From Escherichia coli (GTDB lineage: Bacteria; Pseudomonadota; Gammaproteobacteria; Enterobacterales; Enterobacteriaceae), in the NCBI GenBank assembly GCA_902500055.1, contig GCA_902500055.1_4131.1: a stretch of 64,000 nt of DNA, one strand, 5' to 3'. This document shows positions 2,115-15,434 of this stretch, one piece after another. Each line of letters starts with the position of its first letter. Within the stretch, counting starts at the first letter, position 1. Made by a program: the position numbers and the translations under genes. The notes below the pieces were generated by a model, which saw only the letters and a program-made list of their open reading frames with translations, had not been told where the DNA came from and did not search any database.

Positions 2115-3224
2115 ATGTTACCTTTTGTTAGAATGTTTGATTATGGGAATATCACACCTGGTCCTAAAAATATAATTAAAGTTGGTGCTTCTACACAGGG
2201 TCAATTCTTATTGACAGATTCACATGATTTATATTACATAGGTAGAAATCAAGGTGGTGAATCTGGAAATGGAAATACCAACACAGTATCCTCATGGATA
2301 TTAGTAAGTACAGATGTTTCTAATTTTTTCGTGGGTGATCGTACACTTGTTATTATTAAAAATGATAATACGATATGGTCATCAGGTCAAACGTACTGGT
2401 TCACATCTTCCACAACTACTTCTTACAGTACTGTATTAGTTGATAGAACCAGTTGGTTCACAAATGCAATACCAGTAAGTGAAATTGCTAATATTGTATG
2501 TACATATGGTTTAATATTTGTACTTAGCACTAATTCAGTACTCTATGGTGCAGGGGCTAATGGATATCGTGGTGCTTTAGGTATTGGTTCATCATCAATT
2601 TACACATTAACTCAATGTGCTACTAATGTGCGTAAAGTAATGACGAATTCAAATGACAGTATGTATATTACATTAGATAATAAGTTATATAGTTCTGGGT
2701 GGAATGACAGGGGTCAGCATGGCACGGGGAACCGAACACAAATTAACACGTGGGGATTACGTAGTACTGGAGTAATAGATGCAGCTATTGGTGGACATAC
2801 ACTCAATTACTATAATGGTACATCATATTTCACATGTGGTACAACTCCAAACTTTCTTAGTTCAGATTCAACTACATTCAAAGCAGTTCCTGTAAGTACT
2901 TTACCTAATAATTCACCTTTGTTTATGACAAATTCAGAGGCAACAAGCACGGCTACGCAAATTATATTAACTAGTGCATATCAGAAAGGTATTGGGGGAA
3001 ACCGTGGTTTGGGATTAAACAATTCTCAAACGGGTGCTATCTATAGTGCTGCTAATTTACAATTACCTGTAGAAGTTAGTGAGATTAGTGATGTTGCTTT
3101 TAGTGACGGATTAACATCATTATTAACCAAAGACGGGAATGTATATAGTACTGGATCGTATTACGCCATTCCAGGTGCAAGTGCAGATGTTGCAGTCTTT
3201 ACTAAAATTGATTTACCAAAATAA
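2115..3224 (+). CDS. RCC1-like repeat protein with MLPFVRMFDYGN leader (paralog 3)
   Basis: Contains GWNDRGQHGTGNRT and GANGYRGALGIGSS repeats. It is joined to paralog 2 only by a GGAG SD, so the two form an operon. Confidence 0.85.
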   Translation: MLPFVRMFDYGNITPGPKNIIKVGASTQGQFLLTDSHDLYYIGRNQGGESGNGNTNTVSSWILVSTDVSNFFVGDRTLVIIKNDNTIWSSGQTYWFTSSTTTSYSTVLVDRTSWFTNAIPVSEIANIVCTYGLIFVLSTNSVLYGAGANGYRGALGIGSSSIYTLTQCATNVRKVMTNSNDSMYITLDNKLYSSGWNDRGQHGTGNRTQINTWGLRSTGVIDAAIGGHTLNYYNGTSYFTCGTTPNFLSSDSTTFKAVPVSTLPNNSPLFMTNSEATSTATQIILTSAYQKGIGGNRGLGLNNSQTGAIYSAANLQLPVEVSEISDVAFSDGLTSLLTKDGNVYSTGSYYAIPGASADVAVFTKIDLPK

Positions 3225-3230
3225 CATAAT

Positions 3231-3295
3231 GCCAGTACTCAAGTACTGGCATTTCTTTTTGGGGTAAATATAGTATAATGAATAAAGGAGGAATT
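3231..3295 (+). promoter_or_regulatory. Intergenic cassette: terminator hairpin, conserved TATAAT box and SD
   Basis: Hairpin gccagtactcaagtactggc (3231-3250), TATAAT at 3274-3279, AAAGGAGG, ATG at 3296. Confidence 0.75.
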
Positions 3296-4465
3296 ATGTT
3301 ACCTTTTGTGAGATTGTTTGATTACGGGAATATTGCACCTGATAAACCAAATATTAAAAAAATACTTGCTAACAACTATAATGTTGCTGTTTTAACAAAC
3401 AGTGGTGATTTATATGTGCGTGGTGATAATGCATATGGTATTTTGGGTTTAGGTCACAAAAATACTGTTACTACATGGACTTTTAGTACTTCTGGTGTTG
3501 AAGATTTTTGGATGGGAGCCACGTCGATAGTTGTTAAGAAAAGCAATAATGAAATATGGTACAGTGGAAGTTCAACAACTGTTGGTATGAAAGGGTCAGG
3601 AGTATCAATATGGACATCTGCTATGCCTATATTCAATACATTAACATTACCAATATTAGATATAGCCGTTAGTTATCAGACTACAAGTGTGTTACTATCA
3701 GACCAAACAATATGGAGTACTGGAGTAGGGTCGGATGGTCAGTTGGGTGATGGGACAACAATTAACCATGTTTCTGGTAGATTCGTCAAAAGTACTGTTC
3801 CTACCGCAGCAAATCAATTACCTGTTAAATTGTTTGCAAGTAATTTAATGCACGGTTATGTTACAAACCAAGGATGGTTATTTTATACAGGAAGAGTCAA
3901 TGCAGTTACAAGTTCAGGAAGTAAGTTATATAATATATATTATGGTGCTCCTACCAGCTTAAGTAATACAATTAATATAAAGTACTATGTGAATAATGGT
4001 ACTTCAATGGCAATGGCAATAGGCACTGATCCCACTGGTAAAACTATCATCGCAAATGGTGGTTCAAGAATATTTGGTGCACAAGCAGATGGGAAAGATG
4101 GTTCTCTCAAAGATTATAGAGCATTTGAGGTACAAACAGCATCACTAATGCCACCTGGTGATGTAGTAAGCATTGCTAACAATACTTCATATTATAACCA
4201 AGTTATTGCTACAACAGATGGTATATATTGTTGCGGCTACAATCAATCTACACAAGCTGGTATGTTAGGTATTGGTACATCTACTAATGCATTAGTATAT
4301 ACCAAAGCAATCGTACCTGATGGGTTTGATTATAGTAAGTCACAGATGGCAGGTAGTTATAACCGAACTTATATAACTGATGGTAATTTTGTATATAGCA
4401 CGGGAACAGATGTCACATATGGTGGCATTAGTAGTTTAGAATTTATATTAGATTCGCCAGTTTAA
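3296..4465 (+). CDS. RCC1-like repeat protein with MLPFVRLFDYGN leader (paralog 4)
   Basis: The start was moved to the MLPF ATG because the track ATG lies inside the SD box. Contains GDNAYGILGLGHKN and GSDGQLGDGTT repeats. Confidence 0.85.
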   Translation: MLPFVRLFDYGNIAPDKPNIKKILANNYNVAVLTNSGDLYVRGDNAYGILGLGHKNTVTTWTFSTSGVEDFWMGATSIVVKKSNNEIWYSGSSTTVGMKGSGVSIWTSAMPIFNTLTLPILDIAVSYQTTSVLLSDQTIWSTGVGSDGQLGDGTTINHVSGRFVKSTVPTAANQLPVKLFASNLMHGYVTNQGWLFYTGRVNAVTSSGSKLYNIYYGAPTSLSNTINIKYYVNNGTSMAMAIGTDPTGKTIIANGGSRIFGAQADGKDGSLKDYRAFEVQTASLMPPGDVVSIANNTSYYNQVIATTDGIYCCGYNQSTQAGMLGIGTSTNALVYTKAIVPDGFDYSKSQMAGSYNRTYITDGNFVYSTGTDVTYGGISSLEFILDSPV

Positions 4466-4536: not shown

Positions 4537-5727
4537 ATGTTACCTTTTGCAAGAATGATGAATTATGGGAATATTGTGCCTGTACCACTACAAATTAAGA
4601 AAATAATACCAACTGATACTGAGGTTGTTGTACTTTATACCGACGGTCAACTATACGCACGAGGCAGTAATAGTTATGGGAAGTTTGGTAGAGGAAATAA
4701 TAATGCAGTAAGGTCGTGGACATTAATTAGAGAAAATGTCAAAGATTGCTGGATGACACAAGGAACTTTGTTAGTACAAGATAATGACTTAAATTATTTT
4801 TATTGTGGATATGGTAGTCATATTGGTTTAGAAACTAGTACTACATCATTTTTAAGTTATAACCAATATATTGAAAATTTGTACACACAAAGTTCAAGTA
4901 CTTCAATTAAACAGATGTATGCAGGTACTACGTGGTTTACTTTCTTAATGGATAATAATACAATATGGAGTACAGGGTGGAATAGTGCTAGACAATTCGC
5001 AGATGGTACAGGAACTACTTATCAAATATCAGATGGTTCATTTGTTAAAGCGGTAACACCAGATGTAGATATTGCACAAATACAGTCAACAAATTACTGT
5101 GCAATGTTTTTTGATACACAAAATAATTTATATATTGGTGGTAGTACATCTGGCATAAGTACTAGTACCACATGGACACCATTTAATGAATATACTTTGT
5201 ATAAGCCAAGTACCACATATACAAAAACATTACAATATACTGTTTGTTCATTTGGTGCTGTCAGTGCTTTAGTGGAGAATCCAAATACAGGAGCACGTCA
5301 GTTTCTAGTTGGTGGATTAGCTAATAATGGGGCATGGGGTAATAACACTACGAATAGTACAGCACTAGCAGTATTAGGGAATAATAGTACTACATTACCA
5401 TCAGGAACTTATTATTCAATCCATACTGGATATGCATCACAATCTAGTATACTAGTTACGAGTACAGGTGTATATGCAACTGGTTTAAATGCGAGTGGTT
5501 ATGCTGGTACATTAGGTGTTGGTTCTAATGTTACCATTGGTAAATTTACTGCATGTCCATTGCCGTCAGGAATAACATATTCTATGTATGATAAAATTAA
5601 AATATATCGCGGTTCGTATCGTACTTTCCTAACTGCTGATATGAAAAATATATATTCAACCGGAACGCATGATGATGGTGGTCCTCGTACAAATAGATAT
5701 GTACTGGATACTCCAAGACAGTTATAA
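4537..5727 (+). CDS. RCC1-like repeat protein with MLPFARMMNYGN leader (paralog 5)
   Basis: Contains GSNSYGKFGRGNNN and GLNASGYAGTLGVGSN repeats. The start was set at the MLPF ATG. Confidence 0.85.
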   Translation: MLPFARMMNYGNIVPVPLQIKKIIPTDTEVVVLYTDGQLYARGSNSYGKFGRGNNNAVRSWTLIRENVKDCWMTQGTLLVQDNDLNYFYCGYGSHIGLETSTTSFLSYNQYIENLYTQSSSTSIKQMYAGTTWFTFLMDNNTIWSTGWNSARQFADGTGTTYQISDGSFVKAVTPDVDIAQIQSTNYCAMFFDTQNNLYIGGSTSGISTSTTWTPFNEYTLYKPSTTYTKTLQYTVCSFGAVSALVENPNTGARQFLVGGLANNGAWGNNTTNSTALAVLGNNSTTLPSGTYYSIHTGYASQSSILVTSTGVYATGLNASGYAGTLGVGSNVTIGKFTACPLPSGITYSMYDKIKIYRGSYRTFLTADMKNIYSTGTHDDGGPRTNRYVLDTPRQL

Positions 5728-5733
5728 TATAAT

Positions 5734-5799
5734 GCCAGTACAGAGTACTGGCTTTTCTTTTTTGTATTAAATATATTATAATGAATAAAGGAGGGAATT
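5734..5799 (+). promoter_or_regulatory. Intergenic cassette: terminator hairpin, conserved TATAAT box and SD
   Basis: Hairpin gccagtacagagtactggc (5734-5752), TATAAT at 5777-5782, ATG at 5800. Confidence 0.75.
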
Positions 5800-6537
5800 A
5801 TGTTACCTTTTGGAAGAATGGTTAAGTACGGGAATAAAATTGAATATAAGCCACATGGTGAACAATTAATCACGACAATAGGAACAACACAATTTACAGT
5901 TCCTGCTGGCGTTACCGAAATATCAGTATGTGTTATTTCGCCGGGTGGTCAACGTGGTGCTGGTGGCGGCTTATCGTGGCGTAATAATATTCCGGTTACT
6001 AGTGGTGAGTACTTAAGTGTTTCTCTTACACATCCCAACACTACTACACCAGTTGAAAACGGTTTATATCGTGGAACTGAAAAACTATGTGTTAGCTTCA
6101 CTGGTGAATATAGGGTTGGTGGACTAGGTGGGAAAGCTGCTAACGCTATTAATGATGGTGGTGGTAATGGGGGCAACGCTGGTGTAAGTGGTGGTGCAGT
6201 CATTGGTGGTGGTGCTGGTGGCTACACTGGTAAAGGTGGTAACGGAGATGCAATCACTGGTGAAAATGGTGCTGGCGGCGGCGGTGGTGGTGGTGCATTC
6301 TATAATACCTCGTTCATTGGTACGGGTGGTGGTACTGGTATCATTGTTCAAGGTGCTAATGGCATTGGCGGTAGATACGATGGTTCATATAATGGTGGTG
6401 CTGGTAGTGGTGGTGCTGGTAAGATGTATGGTGGTGGTGGTAGTATATGGGATAATTTTTCTTATACGGCTGCTGGTGGTGGTGCTGTGCGAATAATATG
6501 GGGACGTGGGAGATATTATCCTAACAATTCAGTCTAA
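5800..6537 (+). CDS. Glycine-rich domain protein with the same MLPFGRMVKYGN leader (array member 6, not RCC1)
   Basis: Begins FTVPAGVTEISVCVISPGG, continues with long GGxGG tracts and ends GGGAVRIIWG. This is the layout of glycine-rich-domain proteins. Confidence 0.8.
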   Translation: MLPFGRMVKYGNKIEYKPHGEQLITTIGTTQFTVPAGVTEISVCVISPGGQRGAGGGLSWRNNIPVTSGEYLSVSLTHPNTTTPVENGLYRGTEKLCVSFTGEYRVGGLGGKAANAINDGGGNGGNAGVSGGAVIGGGAGGYTGKGGNGDAITGENGAGGGGGGGAFYNTSFIGTGGGTGIIVQGANGIGGRYDGSYNGGAGSGGAGKMYGGGGSIWDNFSYTAAGGGAVRIIWGRGRYYPNNSV

Positions 6538-6544
6538 AATATAG

Positions 6545-6608
6545 GCCAGTACAGAGTACTGGCTTTTCTTTTTGTATTAAATATAGTATAATGAATAAAG
6601 GAGGAAAT
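6545..6608 (+). promoter_or_regulatory. Intergenic cassette: terminator hairpin, conserved TATAAT box and SD
   Basis: Hairpin gccagtacagagtactggc (6545-6563), TATAAT at 6587-6592, ATG at 6609. Confidence 0.75.
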
Positions 6609-7718
6609 ATGTTACCTTTTGGGAGAATGTTAAAGTACGGGAATATAGCACCTGAAGATCCAAAGATAAAGAAAGTACTGTGCGGTCTTGATAATTTGTA
6701 CGTCCTCTATGGCGATGGCTCACTTTATGGTTGTGGGGTTAATACTTATTTTCAGTTAAACGTTGAAAATACAGCAACAAGAAATACTTGGATATTAATT
6801 TCAGAAGGTGTTACTGATGCATGGGCTGGGGCGTACAATATTCTTTATCTCAAGGGTGAAGAATTCATAATGCATGGAGTTACCACACAATTAGGCACAG
6901 GAAATACTACGATTCCGTTGGGTGGTTTGAATGTTACTTCTTCATTTCCACATATATCTAATATTAAAATGATATCAATTGGTGTAGATACAATGCACTA
7001 CGTTGATGCTAGTGGTTCGATTGTTTATGGTAGAGGCATGAATGGTAACTATTCACTCGGTGGTGGGTATTCCACGGCTCAGAGTACTTTTGTTTCAGTT
7101 ATTAATACCGGAGCTAATACAGTCCTTGATATATTGGGTACACAGAATAACACATTAATATTAACATCAAATGGTGAACTTCTCGGTTGTGGGAGTAGTG
7201 GGTATGGTTCACTTGGCGTAAGTCCAGGACAGTATACTACACTAGTAAGCAGGTTAACCAGTGTTAAACTGTTTGGTGGTAACAGTACTGGTACTCTTGC
7301 TTATTCAGCCAGCAATATATACAACGCAGGTTGGCAGTATATTGGTCAACTTGGTAACGGTATTACAACGAACACACAAGTATATCCATTTGCATTTAAC
7401 TCCACTACTATTGATAGTAAGATACATAAAATATCAAAATCAAGTGCGACTTCATATGTTAATATGTACGCAACAACCGAAGGAAAGATATACAGTACTG
7501 GTGAATTTGGTAGAAATGGTTCTGGTGGTGGTTTGAGTAGATTCACCAATACACTAACTTTAGATAATTACAACCCAGAAAAATCAGCATTATACACATG
7601 TGCACATTTTAGTATAGTATTTGATGGTAATAATCAAATTTATGCTTGTGGTTCTTTTTTGTATGTGCCAGGTCCTATTACCACGAACTCATGGTCTGCA
7701 ATTACAATGCCGAAATAA
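6609..7718 (+). CDS. RCC1-like repeat protein with MLPFGRMLKYGN leader (paralog 7)
   Basis: Contains GVNTYFQLN, GMNGNYSLGGG and GSSGYGSLG repeats. The start was set at the MLPF ATG. Confidence 0.85.
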   Translation: MLPFGRMLKYGNIAPEDPKIKKVLCGLDNLYVLYGDGSLYGCGVNTYFQLNVENTATRNTWILISEGVTDAWAGAYNILYLKGEEFIMHGVTTQLGTGNTTIPLGGLNVTSSFPHISNIKMISIGVDTMHYVDASGSIVYGRGMNGNYSLGGGYSTAQSTFVSVINTGANTVLDILGTQNNTLILTSNGELLGCGSSGYGSLGVSPGQYTTLVSRLTSVKLFGGNSTGTLAYSASNIYNAGWQYIGQLGNGITTNTQVYPFAFNSTTIDSKIHKISKSSATSYVNMYATTEGKIYSTGEFGRNGSGGGLSRFTNTLTLDNYNPEKSALYTCAHFSIVFDGNNQIYACGSFLYVPGPITTNSWSAITMPK

Positions 7719-7732
7719 TACTATAAAACTAT

Positions 7733-7796
7733 GCCAGTACTTTGTACTGGCTTTCTTATTTGTATTAAATATAGTATAATGAATAAAGGAGGAATT
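7733..7796 (+). promoter_or_regulatory. Intergenic cassette: terminator hairpin, conserved TATAAT box and SD
   Basis: Hairpin gccagtactttgtactggc (7733-7751), TATAAT at 7775-7780, ATG at 7797. Confidence 0.75.
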
Positions 7797-8966
7797 ATGT
7801 TACCTTTTGGAAGAATGTTAAAGTACGGAAATATTAAACCAACTCTTCCCGAAATAAAGAAATTGGATGGTAGTCAATTACATGTCGGATTACTTTATAG
7901 TACAGGGAATATGTATATGCGTGGTTCTGGATCGAACTACAAATTAGGAACAGGGAATGATAGTGATGTATTAGGTGGTTGGGTACATGTACCCTATGAA
8001 GTTGATGATTTTTGGGCGTGTGTATCCGGTACATTAATAAAGACGGTTGATAATAAGTTATATTGTGCCGGACTATACATGGGTGGATATTTTGGGGCTA
8101 GTGGTTCATATGTTAACTGGACTGAAGTAACTTCATTATTTGTAGGTATTGACGTGTCGCAAATAAAGAATATAGAATTTACGTCAGCAGGTACGTCAGG
8201 TAGTACACTAATATTGATGTTAGATGGTCGTTTATATGGGTTCGGTATGAACAGTAGATCTGAGTTAGGTGTTAATAACAAAGTTGTATCTCCCATTCTT
8301 ATAGATACTGGGGTAAGTGAAATAGGAGCACATAAGTTAGGCGGTTCATCGTTCCATTATATAAAAGGCGGTAAGTACTACAGATGTGGAACATCGGTTG
8401 GTAGTAATATTGGAAGTTCTTCTTTAACTACTTTTACGGTATTGAGTATTCCTGATAACGTTATATCTATGCAAATTTTATATGACAACGTACAGTTATT
8501 ATGTTTAGGAAGTTCTGGATATAGTATCTATATGGCTGGTTCTAATGATTATGGTGGAAGAGGTGTTGGTGGTTCTACTGTTTACACTACATTCAGGAAA
8601 ATAGATCTTACAGGATTTGGTGTTGTTCCCAGTGAAATACTATTTGAAAATGCCGGAAATGGTTATGTTAATATATCAACTGATAGTACTGGAGTATATA
8701 CATGTGGTGGTGGAGCGGGTGTTAACGGTTTAGGTAGACCAACTAATGTAATACCAAGTTCACAGTTGGGGGTAGTTCAGTTCAGTACTGGAGTAGAACA
8801 ATCAAATATAAGTCGTGTGTATTCACAGAGTTCGAGTTCTGTTATATATTGTATAGTCAATAATGAATTGTACTGGGCTGGGAGTAATTCATATTTTACT
8901 GATCAAACCACAAATACTGGTACACAATTTTCATTTATTAAGATGAAGAATATGCCTTCTGCTTAG
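7797..8966 (+). CDS. RCC1-like repeat protein with MLPFGRMLKYGN leader (paralog 8)
   Basis: Contains GSGSNYKLGTGN, GMNSRSELGVNN and GSNDYGGRGVGG repeats. Confidence 0.85.
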   Translation: MLPFGRMLKYGNIKPTLPEIKKLDGSQLHVGLLYSTGNMYMRGSGSNYKLGTGNDSDVLGGWVHVPYEVDDFWACVSGTLIKTVDNKLYCAGLYMGGYFGASGSYVNWTEVTSLFVGIDVSQIKNIEFTSAGTSGSTLILMLDGRLYGFGMNSRSELGVNNKVVSPILIDTGVSEIGAHKLGGSSFHYIKGGKYYRCGTSVGSNIGSSSLTTFTVLSIPDNVISMQILYDNVQLLCLGSSGYSIYMAGSNDYGGRGVGGSTVYTTFRKIDLTGFGVVPSEILFENAGNGYVNISTDSTGVYTCGGGAGVNGLGRPTNVIPSSQLGVVQFSTGVEQSNISRVYSQSSSSVIYCIVNNELYWAGSNSYFTDQTTNTGTQFSFIKMKNMPSA

Positions 8967-9037: not shown

Positions 9038-10243
9038 ATGTTACCTTTTCCAAGGATGTTAAAATACGCAAATAAAATGAAAGTTCCTGAAGTGAAAGAA
9101 ATCTTTATGTACAATGGTTATAGTGCGTCAGTTATTCCAGCAACAGCACTCTTACTATTATATAAAAATGGAGACTTAATGGGTATAGGTGGAACTAGTT
9201 CACAAAACTATGGATTCGGAAATGGTGTACCTAATGCGAAAGTAAAAGAGTGGGCTTTAATATACCAAAATGTAAAACGTTTTAGAACAGCCCAAGGTTC
9301 TTTTAATTTAATCCAAACCGAAGATAATAAATTTTATTACAGTGGCGTAGGTAGAGCTATTGGTACAGGATTAAGTACTGTCAGTACTTATACTGATTGT
9401 ACTTCATATTTTACATCAGTATTCAATGCAACACAATTGTCGCAAATTAAGGACATTCAAATTGTAGGGGAGGGTATTTTTGTTTTACTTCAAAATGGTA
9501 CGCTATATGGAATGGGGGCCAATACACAGGGATATTTTGGTAATAACACAACCACAAGATTATCAACATTTACTTCAATTAATACGAATGTGGATAGTGT
9601 AAAAACAGGTTCAAGTGCAGTGATTGTGCAGAAAATTGATAAAACACTTTGGGTCACTGGTCAAAACACATGGGGTTCACTTGGTATAAGTAATGGTGAA
9701 ACTAACATTAGAGTATGGACACAAATGGGTGCATTAGCCAACAATACTGTTATACATTATGAACTTGGTGGGAGTGCATCATGGGTTGTATCTAAACACA
9801 ACACGAATAATACATATACAGTTCGTGCAAGTGGGATTCAATCGGAAGGTAACTTGGGTAATAGTTCAGCCGCTTCATCAGGGACAGTATTATCTACAAT
9901 CTCCACTCTACCAATATCAGATAATATGGAAATGAAATCAAATTCATTAACATATGGTGGGCTTACGGTTAAAACTAACAATTCACTTTATATGTGTGGT
10001 ATAAACACATATGGTAGGCTCGGTCGCGGTAATACCACATCAAGTACTACATTTGTAGTTCCAGTTGATGCACCTAAAGTTGGCAGCATCGAGTTATTCT
10101 GTCCAAGTGAATGTACAAATGTGTATATGGATAATCAAGGGGATGTGTATTTGAGTGGCTATATCCCACAAGCAGCAGGGACAACAGTTTCTGATTACTA
10201 CACTAAATTCCAATTATATCAAATACCCAGTCGTGGTATATAA
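9038..10243 (+). CDS. RCC1-like repeat protein with MLPFPRMLKYAN leader (paralog 9)
   Basis: Contains GANTQGYFGNN, GQNTWGSLGISNG and GINTYGRLGRGNTT repeats. Confidence 0.85.
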   Translation: MLPFPRMLKYANKMKVPEVKEIFMYNGYSASVIPATALLLLYKNGDLMGIGGTSSQNYGFGNGVPNAKVKEWALIYQNVKRFRTAQGSFNLIQTEDNKFYYSGVGRAIGTGLSTVSTYTDCTSYFTSVFNATQLSQIKDIQIVGEGIFVLLQNGTLYGMGANTQGYFGNNTTTRLSTFTSINTNVDSVKTGSSAVIVQKIDKTLWVTGQNTWGSLGISNGETNIRVWTQMGALANNTVIHYELGGSASWVVSKHNTNNTYTVRASGIQSEGNLGNSSAASSGTVLSTISTLPISDNMEMKSNSLTYGGLTVKTNNSLYMCGINTYGRLGRGNTTSSTTFVVPVDAPKVGSIELFCPSECTNVYMDNQGDVYLSGYIPQAAGTTVSDYYTKFQLYQIPSRGI

Positions 10244-10250
10244 AAAAAAT

Positions 10251-10315
10251 GCCAGTATTTTGTACTGGCATTTTTTTGTCCTAAATATAATAACGATTTA
10301 CATTTGGAGGATACA
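10251..10315 (+). promoter_or_regulatory. Divergent copy of the intergenic cassette
   Basis: Hairpin gccagtattttgtactggc (10251-10269) flanked by an A-run and a T-run. TATAAT at 10286-10291, GGAGGA SD, ATG at 10316. Confidence 0.6.
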
Positions 10316-11468
10316 ATGCTACCCTTTGGAAGAATTATCACATCATCAAAAAAGAACATACAACCTTCTGTAACAAAAATAGCTTCATCTGATACAACAG
10401 TTTTTGCCCTTATGTCAGATGGTACGTTGTACAGTAGAGGCTCTCAAGAGTTTGGGCAAATGGGTATAGGTAATATTATAACACAAACCAAATGGGTTTT
10501 GTGCAATACAAACGTAGAAGATATATGGGTGCGGGTATGAGTCAACCTTAATAAAAAAGAAAGATAATACGATGTGGTACGCTGGAAATGGTGCATCATT
10601 CGGATTATCAACTGATAAGTCAACAACATGGGCTTCTGCAAAGATAGTGTTTGATAGAATAACCGCCCTAGGCAAAACAATAAAACAAATTGCAGTTAGT
10701 GCAGGTGCATTAAGCGTATTATGCACAGACAACACTATATGGAATACGGGCTATGGTAGTTATGGTCAACTGGGAAATGGTAGAAGTACCGATTCACTTT
10801 CATCATTTGTACAAGGAACAGTACCTACTGGAGTAACACCATCCAAAATACTGGCAAATTTTCTTATGCAAGGATTTATTGGAACCGATGGGAGATTGTA
10901 TTATACTGGTGCAATATCAGGCGTAGGTACAACCGACATGACGTTATATTCAAAGTACACGTTATGTTCTCAAATAACTAATACCTATACGGTGAAAGAT
11001 TATACAACAAACTCAAGTTACTTCGCTTTTGCTATAGCAAGTAATAATAGTAGTAATAAATTATTTGCATATCATGGTGGTGGACAATACTTTGGTCAGT
11101 TAGCAAATGGTTCTACATCACAAACATATATTTCGTTAAGACAAACAACACAAGCACCAGGTGATATAATAAGAAGCAGTGTGGGTTATTCATATTTTTC
11201 TAATCATATTATAACTTCATTAGGTGTTTACGCAACTGGTTATAACACAGGCGATAACGCAGGTCAATTAGGTATAGGTACACAAACAGATGTCTCAGCC
11301 TATACCAAATGTGTACTACCAATAGAGATGAATATGAATAACGTATATGTTACAGCAACTTTATACAGAACTTACTTAACCGATGGTATACAAATTTACA
11401 GTACTGGACAATATGTTACAGACGGTGGAGTTGCCAGTACTGTATTTGTCAAAGATTCACCATTTTAG
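10316..11468 (+). pseudogene. RCC1-like paralog 10, reading frame broken by a +1 shift between 10518 and 10540
   Basis: The MLPFGRIITS... frame stops at 10538-10540. The +1 frame is open from 10518 and reads GCGYESTLIKKKDNTMWYAGNG, which continues the paralog alignment to 11468. Confidence 0.6.
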
Positions 11469-12153: not shown

Positions 12154-12525
12154 TTATGACATACGCTTATTATGAATGGAATTATGAATGGATTTTAAAT
12201 AATTATATAATTTTATCAATCCACTACCAGTAGCTACAAACAGTAGTGCTGTTGGTATCATACATCCAAACATGGTTATTAATTCATGTATTTCCATACC
12301 ATCACTATTTGGTCCCACATCAAATATAACAACCAAAACAACACCTAAAATGCTTAGACAATAATATCCCATAAAGACCATAAAAGTGATATATCCGGCA
12401 CTTGATTTAATATTAGATAACATATTATACACTGGATTAATACAGAAGAAGTATAATAACCATACCAGTGTTCCAGTACTGAACATAATAATTGAAATAA
12501 TGGAAAATATCTCACGGTAACTCAT
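12154..12525 (-). CDS. Small multi-pass membrane protein (TM family, cluster 1)
   Basis: Has several hydrophobic segments and a basic tail ...SIHNKRMS. It abuts its neighbour. Confidence 0.7.
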   Translation of the reverse strand: MSYREIFSIISIIMFSTGTLVWLLYFFCINPVYNMLSNIKSSAGYITFMVFMGYYCLSILGVVLVVIFDVGPNSDGMEIHELITMFGCMIPTALLFVATGSGLIKLYNYLKSIHNSIHNKRMS

Positions 12526-12526
12526 A

Positions 12527-12889
12527 TTATTTCCTCATACCCAAACGTTGGTGGATTTCAGAGATCTTTATATACAATAGTACCACAAGGTGCAGTACTA
12601 AACAACATATAATTACGGCTAATACCAATGAACATATCATAAGACCGAAGGTTATTGTATTCAAAGAGGATGTGAACAGTCCAATTATTAATACAATAAA
12701 ACCAAAATTGAATACTGTACCCAACACAGTATATGCTGGACTATATCTCTTTTGGATTACATCATATATATTTGATAATGGTCGCTTATGGAAGTACTTC
12801 CCAATGCACACGAATGCATTCAGTGAGAAGATAAATGTATACGCCATTACTAGTAATTGACCAACGAAAGATAATTCTATCCCGTTCAT
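12527..12889 (-). CDS. Small multi-pass membrane protein (TM family, cluster 1)
   Basis: The start was moved to MNGIELSF (12889), just after the upstream stop at 12891. It is hydrophobic and ends ...HQRLGMRK. Confidence 0.7.
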   Translation of the reverse strand: MNGIELSFVGQLLVMAYTFIFSLNAFVCIGKYFHKRPLSNIYDVIQKRYSPAYTVLGTVFNFGFIVLIIGLFTSSLNTITFGLMICSLVLAVIICCLVLHLVVLLYIKISEIHQRLGMRK

Positions 12890-12890
12890 A

Positions 12891-13259
12891 CTAACCTCGT
12901 TTACGTTTTTTAATTGTACTGTGCATCTTTTCGAAATAGGGAACCAAAACATATTGAACAGTTTGCCAGATAACCATTAGATTATGCACTGCACCACCAA
13001 GGATACCAAACACTAGAACAATAATTGCCATAATAGGATCACCGTCTACCATACCCCATTTAAAGATATGTAAAATCCAAGCAATGACTAGACAAAATAA
13101 ACTAAGCCAATACGTAATGAAAAATCCGGCTTGTAGTTCATAATCATCAGCAATTTCATCGTATACCGTTTCTAAAAATGATACACAAAAGAATTTACCA
13201 ATTATAACCACAGTACTAATAAACAACATAGCAGTTAAGATAATAAGAGCAATTTCCAT
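12891..13259 (-). CDS. Small multi-pass membrane protein (TM family, cluster 1)
   Basis: Hydrophobic segments with a basic tail ...STIKKRKRG. Confidence 0.7.
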   Translation of the reverse strand: MEIALIILTAMLFISTVVIIGKFFCVSFLETVYDEIADDYELQAGFFITYWLSLFCLVIAWILHIFKWGMVDGDPIMAIIVLVFGILGGAVHNLMVIWQTVQYVLVPYFEKMHSTIKKRKRG

Positions 13260-13573
13260 TACATCCCTCGTTTACGCTTTTGATTGCGTCTAAATTCTGT
13301 TAGTCCACGGCTAATCGGCGGCATCAGACTACATAAAAAAGTAACAGTTGTTGGTAGTAACATCAAGTCAATCATTGCAGTGTTATCTGGTGGATCAAAA
13401 ACCAAAAAATACACACAAGAAACACTAATAATGGTTGAACCGATAAAAGGAATACAAAATTCTTTTATCTGTTTTTCAACATAATCAAACATCTTGAGTA
13501 CAAATAAAAATCCAACCCAACACATAATGAAATAGAATGAATACAACGTGTAAATCAATGTTACTATATCCAT
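13259..13573 (-). CDS. Small multi-pass membrane protein (TM family, cluster 1)
   Basis: Hydrophobic with tail ...RRNQKRKRGM. It has a 1-nt start/stop overlap with both neighbours. Confidence 0.7.
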   Translation of the reverse strand: MDIVTLIYTLYSFYFIMCWVGFLFVLKMFDYVEKQIKEFCIPFIGSTIISVSCVYFLVFDPPDNTAMIDLMLLPTTVTFLCSLMPPISRGLTEFRRNQKRKRGM

Positions 13574-13911
13574 TAGTACCTCGCATCAGGAACTTTAGCA
13601 CGTAACTTATGAACGACTGGGAACAACAACAAACTTACATATGCAATAGTTGAACCCCAATAGAATACTAATACAATTGGTTCACCATTAGAACGGAAAC
13701 CTCTACTAATCATTGAGTAGTGAATAATAGGCATAATCATCGCCATACCAAACCATGCGTGTAATTTTAATTGCAGCATGTTATCAGCGATGAATACTGA
13801 AATTGGTCGTTTAAAGAACCACATCAGAAAGTAGAATCCAGCACTAATAATATAGTACATGGTACTAACTTTCATATACCACGGCAGTAAATCAATAAAG
13901 TACTCCATCAT
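13573..13911 (-). CDS. Small 3-TM membrane protein (TM family)
   Basis: WFFKRP motif after TM1. Tail ...HKLRAKVPDARY. Confidence 0.75.
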   Translation of the reverse strand: MMEYFIDLLPWYMKVSTMYYIISAGFYFLMWFFKRPISVFIADNMLQLKLHAWFGMAMIMPIIHYSMISRGFRSNGEPIVLVFYWGSTIAYVSLLLFPVVHKLRAKVPDARY

Positions 13912-14255
13912 TCCTCCGGTATCTTATTTCGAAGTTCAATCATAACACAACAAATTTTAATGGTCAATATAAAAGTTAAACATATCATCCCAAGTGTGCC
14001 GTAAACTGCGGAAAAAGCTGGTAGTACCTTTCCTGTGAGTGTTGCTACAATACATGCAATCAATGTTGATGCAAACAACGATTGATTAATGGCAGAATTC
14101 ATAAAATCTTCACCATTACGTTTATAGAATTGTCGTTTAAAATACCATCCTAGAAACATAACTACCCAAAATGATACATAAGTTGTTAGAATAATCCCTG
14201 CAAGTGAATGTGCAACTGAACTACTCCTTAAAAACTCAAGATAAGCTTCAAACAT
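13908..14255 (-). CDS. Small 3-TM membrane protein (TM family)
   Basis: WYFKRQ motif, tail ...ELRNKIPEE, ATGA overlap with the neighbour. Confidence 0.75.
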   Translation of the reverse strand: MFEAYLEFLRSSSVAHSLAGIILTTYVSFWVVMFLGWYFKRQFYKRNGEDFMNSAINQSLFASTLIACIVATLTGKVLPAFSAVYGTLGMICLTFILTIKICCVMIELRNKIPEE

Positions 14256-14593
14256 TAGAAGTCTCCGCGAATTTTATCTCTACCATGAATAATGAGATGG
14301 ATTAAGTATACAACTAACCAAATGAACAACCCAAAGAATACAATATATTGTGAGATTGAGTTCAAGTGAGGATTGGCACAATAAATTAAGTGTGCCATAA
14401 GACCAACAATTGCAAACAAACCTTGAACTAGTGTGTAAAGAACTAGTGATGAATTCCTTACTGGATACAGTTTAAAAACAATTTTCTTTTTAAAATACCA
14501 CAGTACTACAACCAGTGCATGATAAAAGAAAAAACCAAACAGATAAATCAAAGTAATACTAATCATTGTATCTGAATTAAAAAACTCAAGCAT
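14255..14593 (-). CDS. Small 3-TM membrane protein (TM family)
   Basis: WYFKKK motif. Tail ...HGRDKIRGDF. Confidence 0.75.
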   Translation of the reverse strand: MLEFFNSDTMISITLIYLFGFFFYHALVVVLWYFKKKIVFKLYPVRNSSLVLYTLVQGLFAIVGLMAHLIYCANPHLNSISQYIVFFGLFIWLVVYLIHLIIHGRDKIRGDF

Positions 14594-14622
14594 ATCGTAT
14601 CTCCGGTGGTGAATATTAAGTT

Positions 14623-14651
14623 ATAGTACTACCATAGTGTAGTACTGTCAA
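14623..14651 (-). promoter_or_regulatory. Sigma-70-type promoter TTGACA-N17-TACTAT
   Basis: The reverse complement reads TTGACAgtactacactatggtagTACTAT, upstream of the TM gene cluster. Confidence 0.6.
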
Positions 14652-14660
14652 TACATGTAA

Positions 14661-15434
14661 TTAAATTTTCTCAAGGAACATATTCTCTGCCATTGATTCC
14701 CAATCGTATGGGAATTTATTATACAAACCAGCGATCAGTACTGGCATACGCAGTGATGGACTACGCAAACGTTCTTCGTTGTTCAGCATCCAATTCAGGA
14801 TTGCTTTACAACCATTTTTGTTAACACCATTGTTTTCAAGGATGTTAGTTTTGTTCATGATGTTCTCAATGTGAATCATCACTTCTTCGTTGGTGAACAG
14901 TTGCAGGTCAACAAAGATACTACGAGTGATCAGTGCATCGATGTGTGGTGCTAAGCTGCTTTTACCTTTAGCAATCTGTGACAGGTTTTTGTTAGTCAGA
15001 AAGATTACTTTACCACGGAATTCAAACTGCTTAGGGATACCCTGCTGTTCCAGGTACTTAGCAGAAGTCGCGTAAGAAACTACACGCTTCTCTGACGTAT
15101 CCAACACAGCTTTAAGCAAATCAATATTAGTCTCGTCAGAGAAGATATCAACGTCATCAAGTAACAGTACTGATGCGGCATGACGTGAACGATACAGTGC
15201 TTCGTACAGACCCAAAGTAGTTACTTTACCACTGATTTTCTTGTAGTCGATTTCAAAGTTATCATCAGCTTTCTGTAACCGTTGGTCAACGTTATAAGTT
15301 TTACCAACACCACCTTTACCTGATACGATCAGAGAGTTGATAGAGTTAGCTTGTGTATCAAGAAGGCATTCCAGTGCAGCCATCATGCTATTGAAGTTTT
15401 TTTCGATTTGGATTGCTTTCTCTTGACGGGTCAT
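14661..15434 (-). CDS. P-loop NTPase (AAA-like ATPase)
   Basis: Walker A VSGKGGVGKT and Walker B VLLLDDVD. The SD AAGGAGA precedes the ATG. Confidence 0.8.
   Translation of the reverse strand: MTRQEKAIQIEKNFNSMMAALECLLDTQANSINSLIVSGKGGVGKTYNVDQRLQKADDNFEIDYKKISGKVTTLGLYEALYRSRHAASVLLLDDVDIFSDETNIDLLKAVLDTSEKRVVSYATSAKYLEQQGIPKQFEFRGKVIFLTNKNLSQIAKGKSSLAPHIDALITRSIFVDLQLFTNEEVMIHIENIMNKTNILENNGVNKNGCKAILNWMLNNEERLRSPSLRMPVLIAGLYNKFPYDWESMAENMFLEKI

Follow-up and report, generated by a model that had tools for sequence, protein, structure and literature searches.

A short N-terminal peptide shared by unrelated jumbo phage proteins is a candidate virion docking tag

A peptide beginning Met-Leu-Pro-Phe (MLPF) opens a series of otherwise non-homologous proteins in one group of jumbo phages, and we argue here that it probably serves to dock them onto the virion. 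The starting point was a 64,000-nucleotide stretch of DNA from an Escherichia coli assembly (GCA_902500055.1, contig GCA_902500055.1_4131.1; hereafter the window), which shows 91–98% identity to jumbo phages of E. coli in the genus Asteriusvirus (the 121Q/PBECO4/phAPEC6 group). The gene in question, an open reading frame (ORF) at 5800–6537 on the + strand, encodes a glycine-rich protein of 245 aa with the N-terminus MLPFGRMVKYGNK and is the ortholog of coliphage 121Q gp243. It lies in a paralog array that fills the first 11.5 kb of the window on the + strand and, as the first-pass annotation of this DNA had it, is member 6 (the partial RCC1 ORF at 36–839 included in the count) and carries the shared leader. 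Nine ORFs of the array start with MLPF, all on the + strand (at 912, 2115, 3296, 4537, 5800, 6609, 7797, 9038 and 10316), and a scan of both strands found no further MLPF start in the rest of the 64 kb. The neighbours of ORF 5800–6537 all match PF25390 (E 1e-19 to 1e-23). A full-length gp243 ortholog was present within the array in all 18 Asteriusvirus records found, with 84–100% identity.

The body of the 5800–6537 protein is a predicted fibre head

A Pfam search with the 5800–6537 protein gave no RCC1 signal (PF00415, PF13540 or PF25390), with no match even at E ≤ 10, and an NCBIfam search gave no match either, so the family was assigned from homologs and fold. There were 194 homologs at E ≤ 1e-3, mostly phage proteins of approximately 245 aa, many of which carry a precomputed PF21722 (Gly_rich_2) assignment; the protein also matched PHROG 4474 (E 1e-68). 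The PF21722 gathering score was not reached directly, and the paralogs from Serratia phage BF score 18–20 bits against a cut-off of 24.3. In the alignment of glycine-rich homologs the Gly columns are conserved, and W234, G235 and P241 are invariant.

The AlphaFold model (monomer only, from an alignment of 61 sequences) was predicted with high confidence (predicted local distance difference test (pLDDT) 93.8, predicted template modelling (pTM) score 0.90). It shows β-strands from residue 20 to approximately 100 followed by a glycine-rich region, that is, a TNF-like sandwich and then a polyglycine lattice, and not the seven blades of a propeller. Structure matches in BFVD were to viral ‘glycine-rich domain’ proteins, giant-virus collagen-like fibres, baseplate proteins and minor tail proteins. 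Profile–profile alignment with the RCC1 paralogs using hhalign returned a probability of 0.3%. Taken together, the homologs, the model, the BFVD matches and the hhalign result identify the body as a predicted TNF-like plus polyglycine fibre head, not a decayed propeller, and uphold the earlier description of it as non-homologous to RCC1.

In other viruses, glycine-rich head domains form the distal, receptor-binding end of tail fibres and are covalently joined to shafts. The segment N-terminal to the glycine-rich head of Pam3 gp24 is a baseplate-docking element (PMC9608196). Pam3 gp24 docks via a long α-helical bundle and the T-even/S16 adhesin gp38 via three short helices, whereas the window protein has only a 12-residue peptide, which it shares with non-homologous proteins. 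PF21722 and the ALK/LTK glycine-rich domain are also among the nearest known systems, but the window protein falls below any Pfam threshold, and in ALK the domain belongs to the ectodomain of a eukaryotic receptor.

The leader lies outside the folded domains and ends with the DNA repeat

The models place the leader outside both kinds of body. Residues 1–10 have a pLDDT of 52 in the glycine-rich protein and 56 in the RCC1 paralog at 6609–7718, and both domains begin at residue 20; low N-terminal confidence together with this domain start makes the leader an extension outside two unrelated folds. Confidence rises to approximately 78 over residues 11–20 of the glycine-rich model. The linker that follows the leader is short, 6–7 residues in the 5800–6537 protein, and often contains proline.

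At the DNA level, comparison of the paralogs anchored on the ATG gave 7–10 identical nucleotides per 10-nucleotide bin up to position +39 of the coding sequence and background from +40, so the breakpoint sought at the outset falls between codons 13 and 14. Upstream, the likeness continues into a cassette of hairpin, AT-rich box and ribosome-binding site (RBS). The features of the gene and its flanks are:

5734..5762, + strand: terminator-like hairpin GCCAGTAC-AGA-GTACTGGC with T-run, at the end of the upstream RCC1 gene; 5' boundary of the cassette repeat
5764..5782, + strand: AT-rich promoter-like box GTATTAAATATATTATAAT, with TATAAT at 5777–5782; common to most array members, putative promoter
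5787..5795, + strand: ribosome-binding site AAAGGAGGG, ending 4 nt before the ATG
5800..5838, + strand: leader, codons 1–13 (MLPFGRMVKYGNK), tag subtype A, MLPFxR#xxY(G/A)N; last DNA homology with the RCC1 paralogs
5839..5856, + strand: linker, residues 14–19 (IEYKPH), from tag to folded domain; first strand at residue 20 in the model
5857..6099, + strand: predicted TNF-like β-sandwich, approximately residues 20–100, including FTVPAGVTEISVCV and GGGLSWRNNIPV
6100..6537, + strand: glycine-rich (polyglycine) sub-domain, approximately residues 101–245, ending GGGAVRIIWGRGRYYPNNSV, and stop codon (alignment and model)
6543..6573, + strand: downstream terminator-like hairpin with T-run, the second hairpin copy, which begins the next cassette

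The two hairpins flanking the gene (5734–5762 and 6545–6573) are identical. In the window alone, the inference that the leader is portable is confounded, since the leader sits inside a DNA repeat with promoter and RBS and gene conversion could explain its spread. Data from other genera (CBB, BF, GAP32 and uncultured jumbo phages) remove this confound.

Proteins with the leader occur in several genera and on many bodies

Pectobacterium phage CBB, a member of a different genus, had been described as having no homolog of the RCC1-like GAP32 gp1. Its glycine-rich homolog CBB_144 starts MLPFSPLIVYGNK, lies between nrdD and nrdG and has unrelated upstream DNA. Nine more CBB proteins (536, 537 and 548–554) start MLPFxR#xxY(G/A)N or a close variant, with bodies that include Kelch propellers and laminin-G lectins. 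When 2.9 million IMG/VR contigs were scanned with a degenerate DNA pattern for the leader, only six matched, all of 348–378 kb: 121Q, CBB, GAP32, Serratia phage BF and two uncultured phages. Outside Asteriusvirus, the DNA upstream of the MLPF genes is unrelated.

Together, the six contigs and the window hold 54 unique MLPF genes. All 54 encode the M, P and F of the leader and 53 the L, while the codons for conserved leader residues vary synonymously (CCA/CCT/CCC/CCG, TTT/TTC, TAC/TAT, GGG/GGA/GGT and AAT/AAC). Adding one metagenome scan brought the set to 105 unique MLPF-led proteins of at least 140 aa; 17 of the 39 metagenome loci matching the pattern had no leader-type ORF of at least 100 aa and were treated as chance or truncated matches. 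Stripped of their leaders, the 105 bodies fall into 13 BLAST clusters. RCC1/Kelch propellers account for 68 proteins, and the others are glycine-rich heads, several groups of laminin-G proteins and families without a Pfam match; the Pfam names represented include RCC1, Kelch, Laminin_G_3 and Gly_rich_2. The two propeller families are joined in one cluster by RCC1-like/Kelch fusion proteins: in uncultured jumbo phages we observed propeller fusions of 667–690 aa behind a subtype C or PQL leader (L010:6413-8416, L059:13824). Phage RCC1 homologs from metagenomes carry the leader and cellular RCC1 homologs lack it.

Several subtypes of the tag can be distinguished, namely A (xR#xxYGN), B (PIISxT), AB, C (xPLxVYGN) and a PQL variant. 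The same glycine-rich body is headed by subtype A in Asteriusvirus, by subtype B in Serratia phage BF and by subtype C in CBB. Proteins of one phage group that are otherwise non-homologous thus have a short N-terminal peptide in common, and the varied bodies, the unrelated upstream DNA and the synonymous codon variation across genera indicate, from sequence comparison, that it is portable and constrained at the protein level. The proposal of the first-pass annotation that the leader is a portable module on non-homologous cargo is borne out by these cross-genus bodies, by the codon variation and by CBB_144 at its separate locus.

One metagenome variant of the glycine-rich protein (P0002, 206 aa) has no leader and starts MNKGGNKIEYKPHGE, with MLPFGRMVKYG seemingly lost from between the RBS region and codon 12. 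Its glycine-rich part carries a further, internal deletion. The variant may be either a natural deletion or an assembly artefact.

Tagged proteins are found in virion preparations

Published virion proteomics detects many of the tagged proteins. In phAPEC6, eight RCC1 proteins were detected (PMC7247149 Table 1), and the RCC1-like GAP32 gp1 was likewise found in virions by mass spectrometry. For CBB, the glycine-rich homolog CBB_144 was identified with 5 peptides and 34% coverage, and CBB 536, 537 and 552 are named in the virion-proteomics text (PMC5259590); CBB 548, 549, 551 and 553 are labelled ‘structural protein’ in the GenBank record. A ‘PE-PGRS family protein’ was detected in virions of Eneladusvirus phages of Erwinia (PMC7760394), and this annotation sits on glycine-rich MLPF genes of the BF type. 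We infer an address-tag function for the peptide from these data.

The phAPEC6 virion list contains no glycine-rich protein, which is explained by a gene call: phAPEC6 gp004 (7716–8018; VVQSLVVV...) is a wrong-frame call within an intact 245-aa MLPF glycine-rich ORF (7325–8059, MK817115.1), so that the real protein was not in the proteomics database.

A different tag on the same kinds of cargo in Vequintavirinae

Of 61 stand-alone glycine-rich homologs from outside the jumbo phages, 28 start M[LI]E[LM][LM]. Vequintavirinae also have tandem RCC1-like arrays whose members start MLEM[LM]NL, with four such genes in vB_EcoM-LTH01 and three in W70. Cronobacter phage EspYZU08 encodes an RCC1-like protein (MFEMLLGG) 1.9 kb from a 245-aa glycine-rich protein (MLEILTIG), and PVP-SE1 pairs the glycine-rich gp19 (MFEMMLAT) with a truncated RCC1-like gp179 (MFEMLLGG). 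W70_237–239 are virion proteins with spectral counts of 141–233, compared with 173–212 for baseplate proteins (PMC11370258). One cargo set that bears a different, unrelated tag in each of two lineages, and is virion-associated in each, is the pattern expected of lineage-specific address tags. The tagged loci are:

L025:1483-6152; L027:1145-4643; L026:3353-4516, 6366-7103; L024:19250-19552; L022:14790-15632; L018:8134-10744: loci with M[LIF]E[LMI][LM]-tagged proteins

The M[LIF]E[LMI][LM] tag was also seen on a weak laminin-G protein and in a Plesiomonas-associated phage contig.

A probable docking peptide on stand-alone fibre heads

We consider it probable that the MLPF peptide is a lineage-specific virion-incorporation (docking) peptide on a stand-alone fibre-head module, which plugs into a shared socket on the particle. 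In such a scheme a gp243-type protein would be a fibre head in which a peptide of 12–13 residues and a linker of 6–7 residues replace the fibre shaft. Rak2-like jumbo phages would place the tag on small binding modules (RCC1/Kelch propellers, laminin-G lectins and glycine-rich heads), each of which would plug non-covalently into a common hypothetical socket. That socket would most likely be external and of low copy number, in the tail, the baseplate or hair-like fibres, giving a virion with a mixed set of adhesins. In Asteriusvirus, the terminator–promoter–RBS cassette would keep the modules separately expressed and favour duplication and shuffling.

An external, low-copy socket is favoured by the lectin-like and fibre-tip nature of the cargo, by the fact that the glycine-rich head is elsewhere joined to fibre shafts and by the W70 counts, which approach baseplate stoichiometry. 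‘Hairs’ are found on the tail of 121Q, phAPEC6 and CBB, and also on the head in 121Q and phAPEC6. Since their components have so far not been assigned, they are an obvious candidate docking site.

The closest known analogues are N-terminal docking peptides of other phages. The hepta- and undecapeptides of K1E/K1-5/SP6 and the ‘conserved peptide’ of KP32/KP34 dock secondary receptor-binding proteins (RBPs) on a T4gp10-like branching domain (PMC6872550), and RBP N-terminal docking peptides have been shown by experiment to be required and transferable (PMC13352976). Like MLPF, these peptides (7–20 residues; PMC6872550) are conserved within a phage group and stand on otherwise unrelated virion proteins with exchangeable cargo. 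MLPF differs in sequence, in having small globular binding domains rather than trimeric β-helix depolymerases as cargo, and in its numbers, with 10–15 tagged genes per genome and several tag subtypes. We considered whether MLPF is the known ‘conserved peptide’ of the RaK2/K64-1 depolymerases and rejected this: RaK2 gp525–534 start M.N.LIQPKGS or MSLSNL, and the last 46 kb of RaK2 contain no MLPF ORF.

The cassette itself recalls another known arrangement. In T4-type phages, hairpin-plus-promoter units known as PeSLs reportedly flank single genes in a hyperplastic region and favour their shuffling (Arbiol, Comeau, Krisch and colleagues, around 2010). The window has similar repeated units around individual genes, but its repeat reaches 39 nt into the coding sequence, and the peptide encoded by those 39 nt is conserved even where a phage has no such DNA repeat.

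Several points weigh against a docking role or against its placement on the particle surface. Virion detection of the glycine-rich protein does not extend to Asteriusvirus, the wrong-frame call in phAPEC6 having precluded it, and the peptide counts for the phAPEC6 RCC1 proteins were low (1–5). Purified-virion mass spectrometry can pick up co-purifying proteins. The case for an external location comes down to the nature of the cargo and a rough reading of spectral counts. The leader DNA is almost invariant within Asteriusvirus, as gene conversion of the cassette would also produce. Finally, in the proposal of the phAPEC6 authors, the RCC1 proteins act internally and organise the DNA.

A broader version of the docking proposal, which we put forward tentatively, is that MLPF and MLE[LM][LM] are two cases of a general plug-and-socket system. 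The approximately 12 residues would then be necessary and sufficient for incorporation, subtypes A, B, C and PQL would address different sockets, and the tagged arrays would form the distal parts of the ‘hairs’ as combinatorial adhesins.

Alternative explanations for the shared leader

The strongest competitor, which we nevertheless regard as unlikely, is that MLPF is a capsid-targeting sequence (CTS) that binds the scaffolding core and thereby brings its cargo into the head interior (in phAPEC6, for instance, the inner body), to be ejected into the host. The T4 internal proteins IPI–III are an exact precedent, as diverse proteins that share only an N-terminal CTS of approximately 10 residues, which is sufficient and portable to foreign cargo (PMC3012670); here too a short N-terminal peptide is the sole element common to a hypervariable protein set. 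In addition, phAPEC6 has an inner body of unassigned composition, for which its authors suggested the RCC1 proteins; the jumbo phages of the MLPF set encode a T4-like prohead protease; and L-x-E can be read in some CBB tags. However, whereas the T4 CTS is removed at L/I-x-E and targets small cargo to the head interior in hundreds of copies, MLPF has no conserved cleavage motif: position 9 is Glu in 10 of the 54 tags and K, N, Q, D or V elsewhere, with K in the 5800 gene. MLPF cargo consists of rigid fibre-tip binding folds of 25–45 kDa (lectin, propeller and TNF-like/polyglycine), not small basic internal proteins, and the W70 RCC1 spectral counts are close to those of baseplate proteins rather than of high-copy internal proteins, although that is a rough argument.

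It is distinctly improbable that the tag is instead read by a partner outside the virion, such as a dedicated chaperone or modifying enzyme, or an export route that the neighbouring membrane paralogs and P-loop ATPase would form. MLPF arrays do flank a membrane-paralog/ATPase block in both Asteriusvirus (12154–15434, − strand, in the window) and CBB (CBB_538–547), but this synteny, the one point in favour of such a partner, may simply reflect common ancestry. Tagged proteins turn up in virion preparations in four studies, and the tag, as read from sequence, contains neither a lipobox nor a hydrophobic core. For want of such a core, export appears the least likely of the three address functions originally suggested (docking, export or packaging).

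Still less credible is the idea that the common start arose incidentally from DNA mechanics or expression signals, as either a recombination or gene-conversion unit or a translation-initiation region, and that the peptide itself has no function. Within the window the leader is contiguous with a near-identical terminator–promoter–RBS repeat, and its DNA is nearly invariant in the array while the bodies are 21–26% identical; the Leu2 codon is TTA in 49 of the 54 genes. Against this, the leader is kept in four or more genera in unrelated upstream and RBS contexts, and its Pro, Phe, Tyr, Gly and Asn codons vary synonymously; CBB_144 retains the peptide at an unrelated locus, and the array member at 2115 retains it without the cassette. 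A purely DNA- or translation-level explanation is, on these comparisons, largely excluded. A reading of the glycine-rich body as a decayed RCC1 propeller, the outcome that the first-pass annotation named as refuting its proposal, has nothing in its favour beyond membership of the same array and is practically eliminated by the hhalign probability of 0.3% and the lack of a Pfam RCC1 signal.

Organisation of the cassette and the array

The docking peptide proposed here is encoded in an array with the following members in addition to ORF 5800–6537 (from the ORF list, Pfam and the MLPF scan):

912–2105, 2115–3224, 3296–4465 and 4537–5727, + strand: four upstream MLPF-led RCC1-like paralogs
6609–7718, 7797–8966 and 9038–10243, + strand: downstream MLPF-led RCC1-like paralogs
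10316–10540 plus 10572–11468, + strand: degenerate split array member

The RBS AAAGGAGG and the AT-rich box of gene 5800 are shared with the array paralogs, and a strict RBS-plus-leader pattern gave 4 matches against 0.03 expected. The AT-rich box at 5764..5782 lacks a sigma-70 −35 partner and was not predicted as a sigma-70 promoter; it is therefore presumed to act as a phage-specific one. The first-pass annotation had described the promoter cassette as identical between members; a shared cassette is present, but its copies are only near-identical, differing by 1 nt in the length of the T-run, in TATAtTATAAT versus TATAgTATAAT and in the spacer after GGAGG. The cassette of member 10316 is diverged, and member 2115 lacks the hairpin and promoter altogether, has a weak RBS of its own and keeps the MLPF leader. 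Member 2115 starts 9 nt past the stop of the gene at 912 and, having no cassette, is presumably co-transcribed with it.

An ATG within the cassette (ATGAATAAAGGAGG; window positions 3278, 4480, 6591 and 7731) is in frame in some members, which yields mechanical extensions of the form MNKGG[IN]MLPF.... RBS spacing argues that MLPF, rather than this cassette ATG, is the true start. The last array member (10304–11468) has a diverged leader, MLPFGRIITSSKK, and an RCC1 body split into two ORFs; 121Q has comparable split members, gp240 and gp239. Long alternative-frame ORFs occur on both strands within the glycine-rich gene at 5949–6496 (for example 6188–6496 on the + strand and 6124–6351 on the − strand) and are artefacts of its GGN-rich coding sequence; the gene call in phAPEC6 corresponds to one of these frames. 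Adjoining the array at 12154–15434 (− strand) are six or seven paralogous small multi-pass membrane proteins and a P-loop ATPase (14661–15434). This block is syntenic with CBB_538–547, and MLPF genes flank it in both phages.

Discussion

That an N-terminal peptide can serve in docking or targeting is known already. What appears to be new is the MLPF peptide itself with its subtypes, its occurrence on more than 100 proteins with at least four folds in several genera, and the parallel tag of Vequintavirinae. A literature search for ‘MLPF’ together with phage returned nothing relevant, and neither MLPF nor MLEM tags were described in the papers searched, which included a jumbo-phage review, the phi92 cryo-EM paper and the CB7 paper.

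Our analysis exposes a wrong-frame call of gp243 homologs as well as ‘PE-PGRS’ and ‘S-layer’ mislabels. The homologs bear misleading names such as ‘DNA condensation protein’, ‘S-layer protein’, ‘Ig domain-containing protein’ and ‘PE-PGRS family protein’, and others are called ‘E3 ubiquitin-protein ligase HERC1’ or ‘X-linked retinitis pigmentosa GTPase regulator’.

If the tag proves sufficient, 12 residues could display foreign proteins on jumbo-phage or Vequintavirinae particles, a far shorter element than the anchor domains currently used to swap RBPs. The docking interpretation also suggests a candidate mechanism for building or decorating the hairs of 121Q, phAPEC6 and CBB. Large tandem arrays of ‘RCC1 / DNA condensation protein’ genes are a hallmark of the jumbo phages considered here, and under that interpretation they would encode interchangeable surface-binding heads rather than chromatin-like factors.

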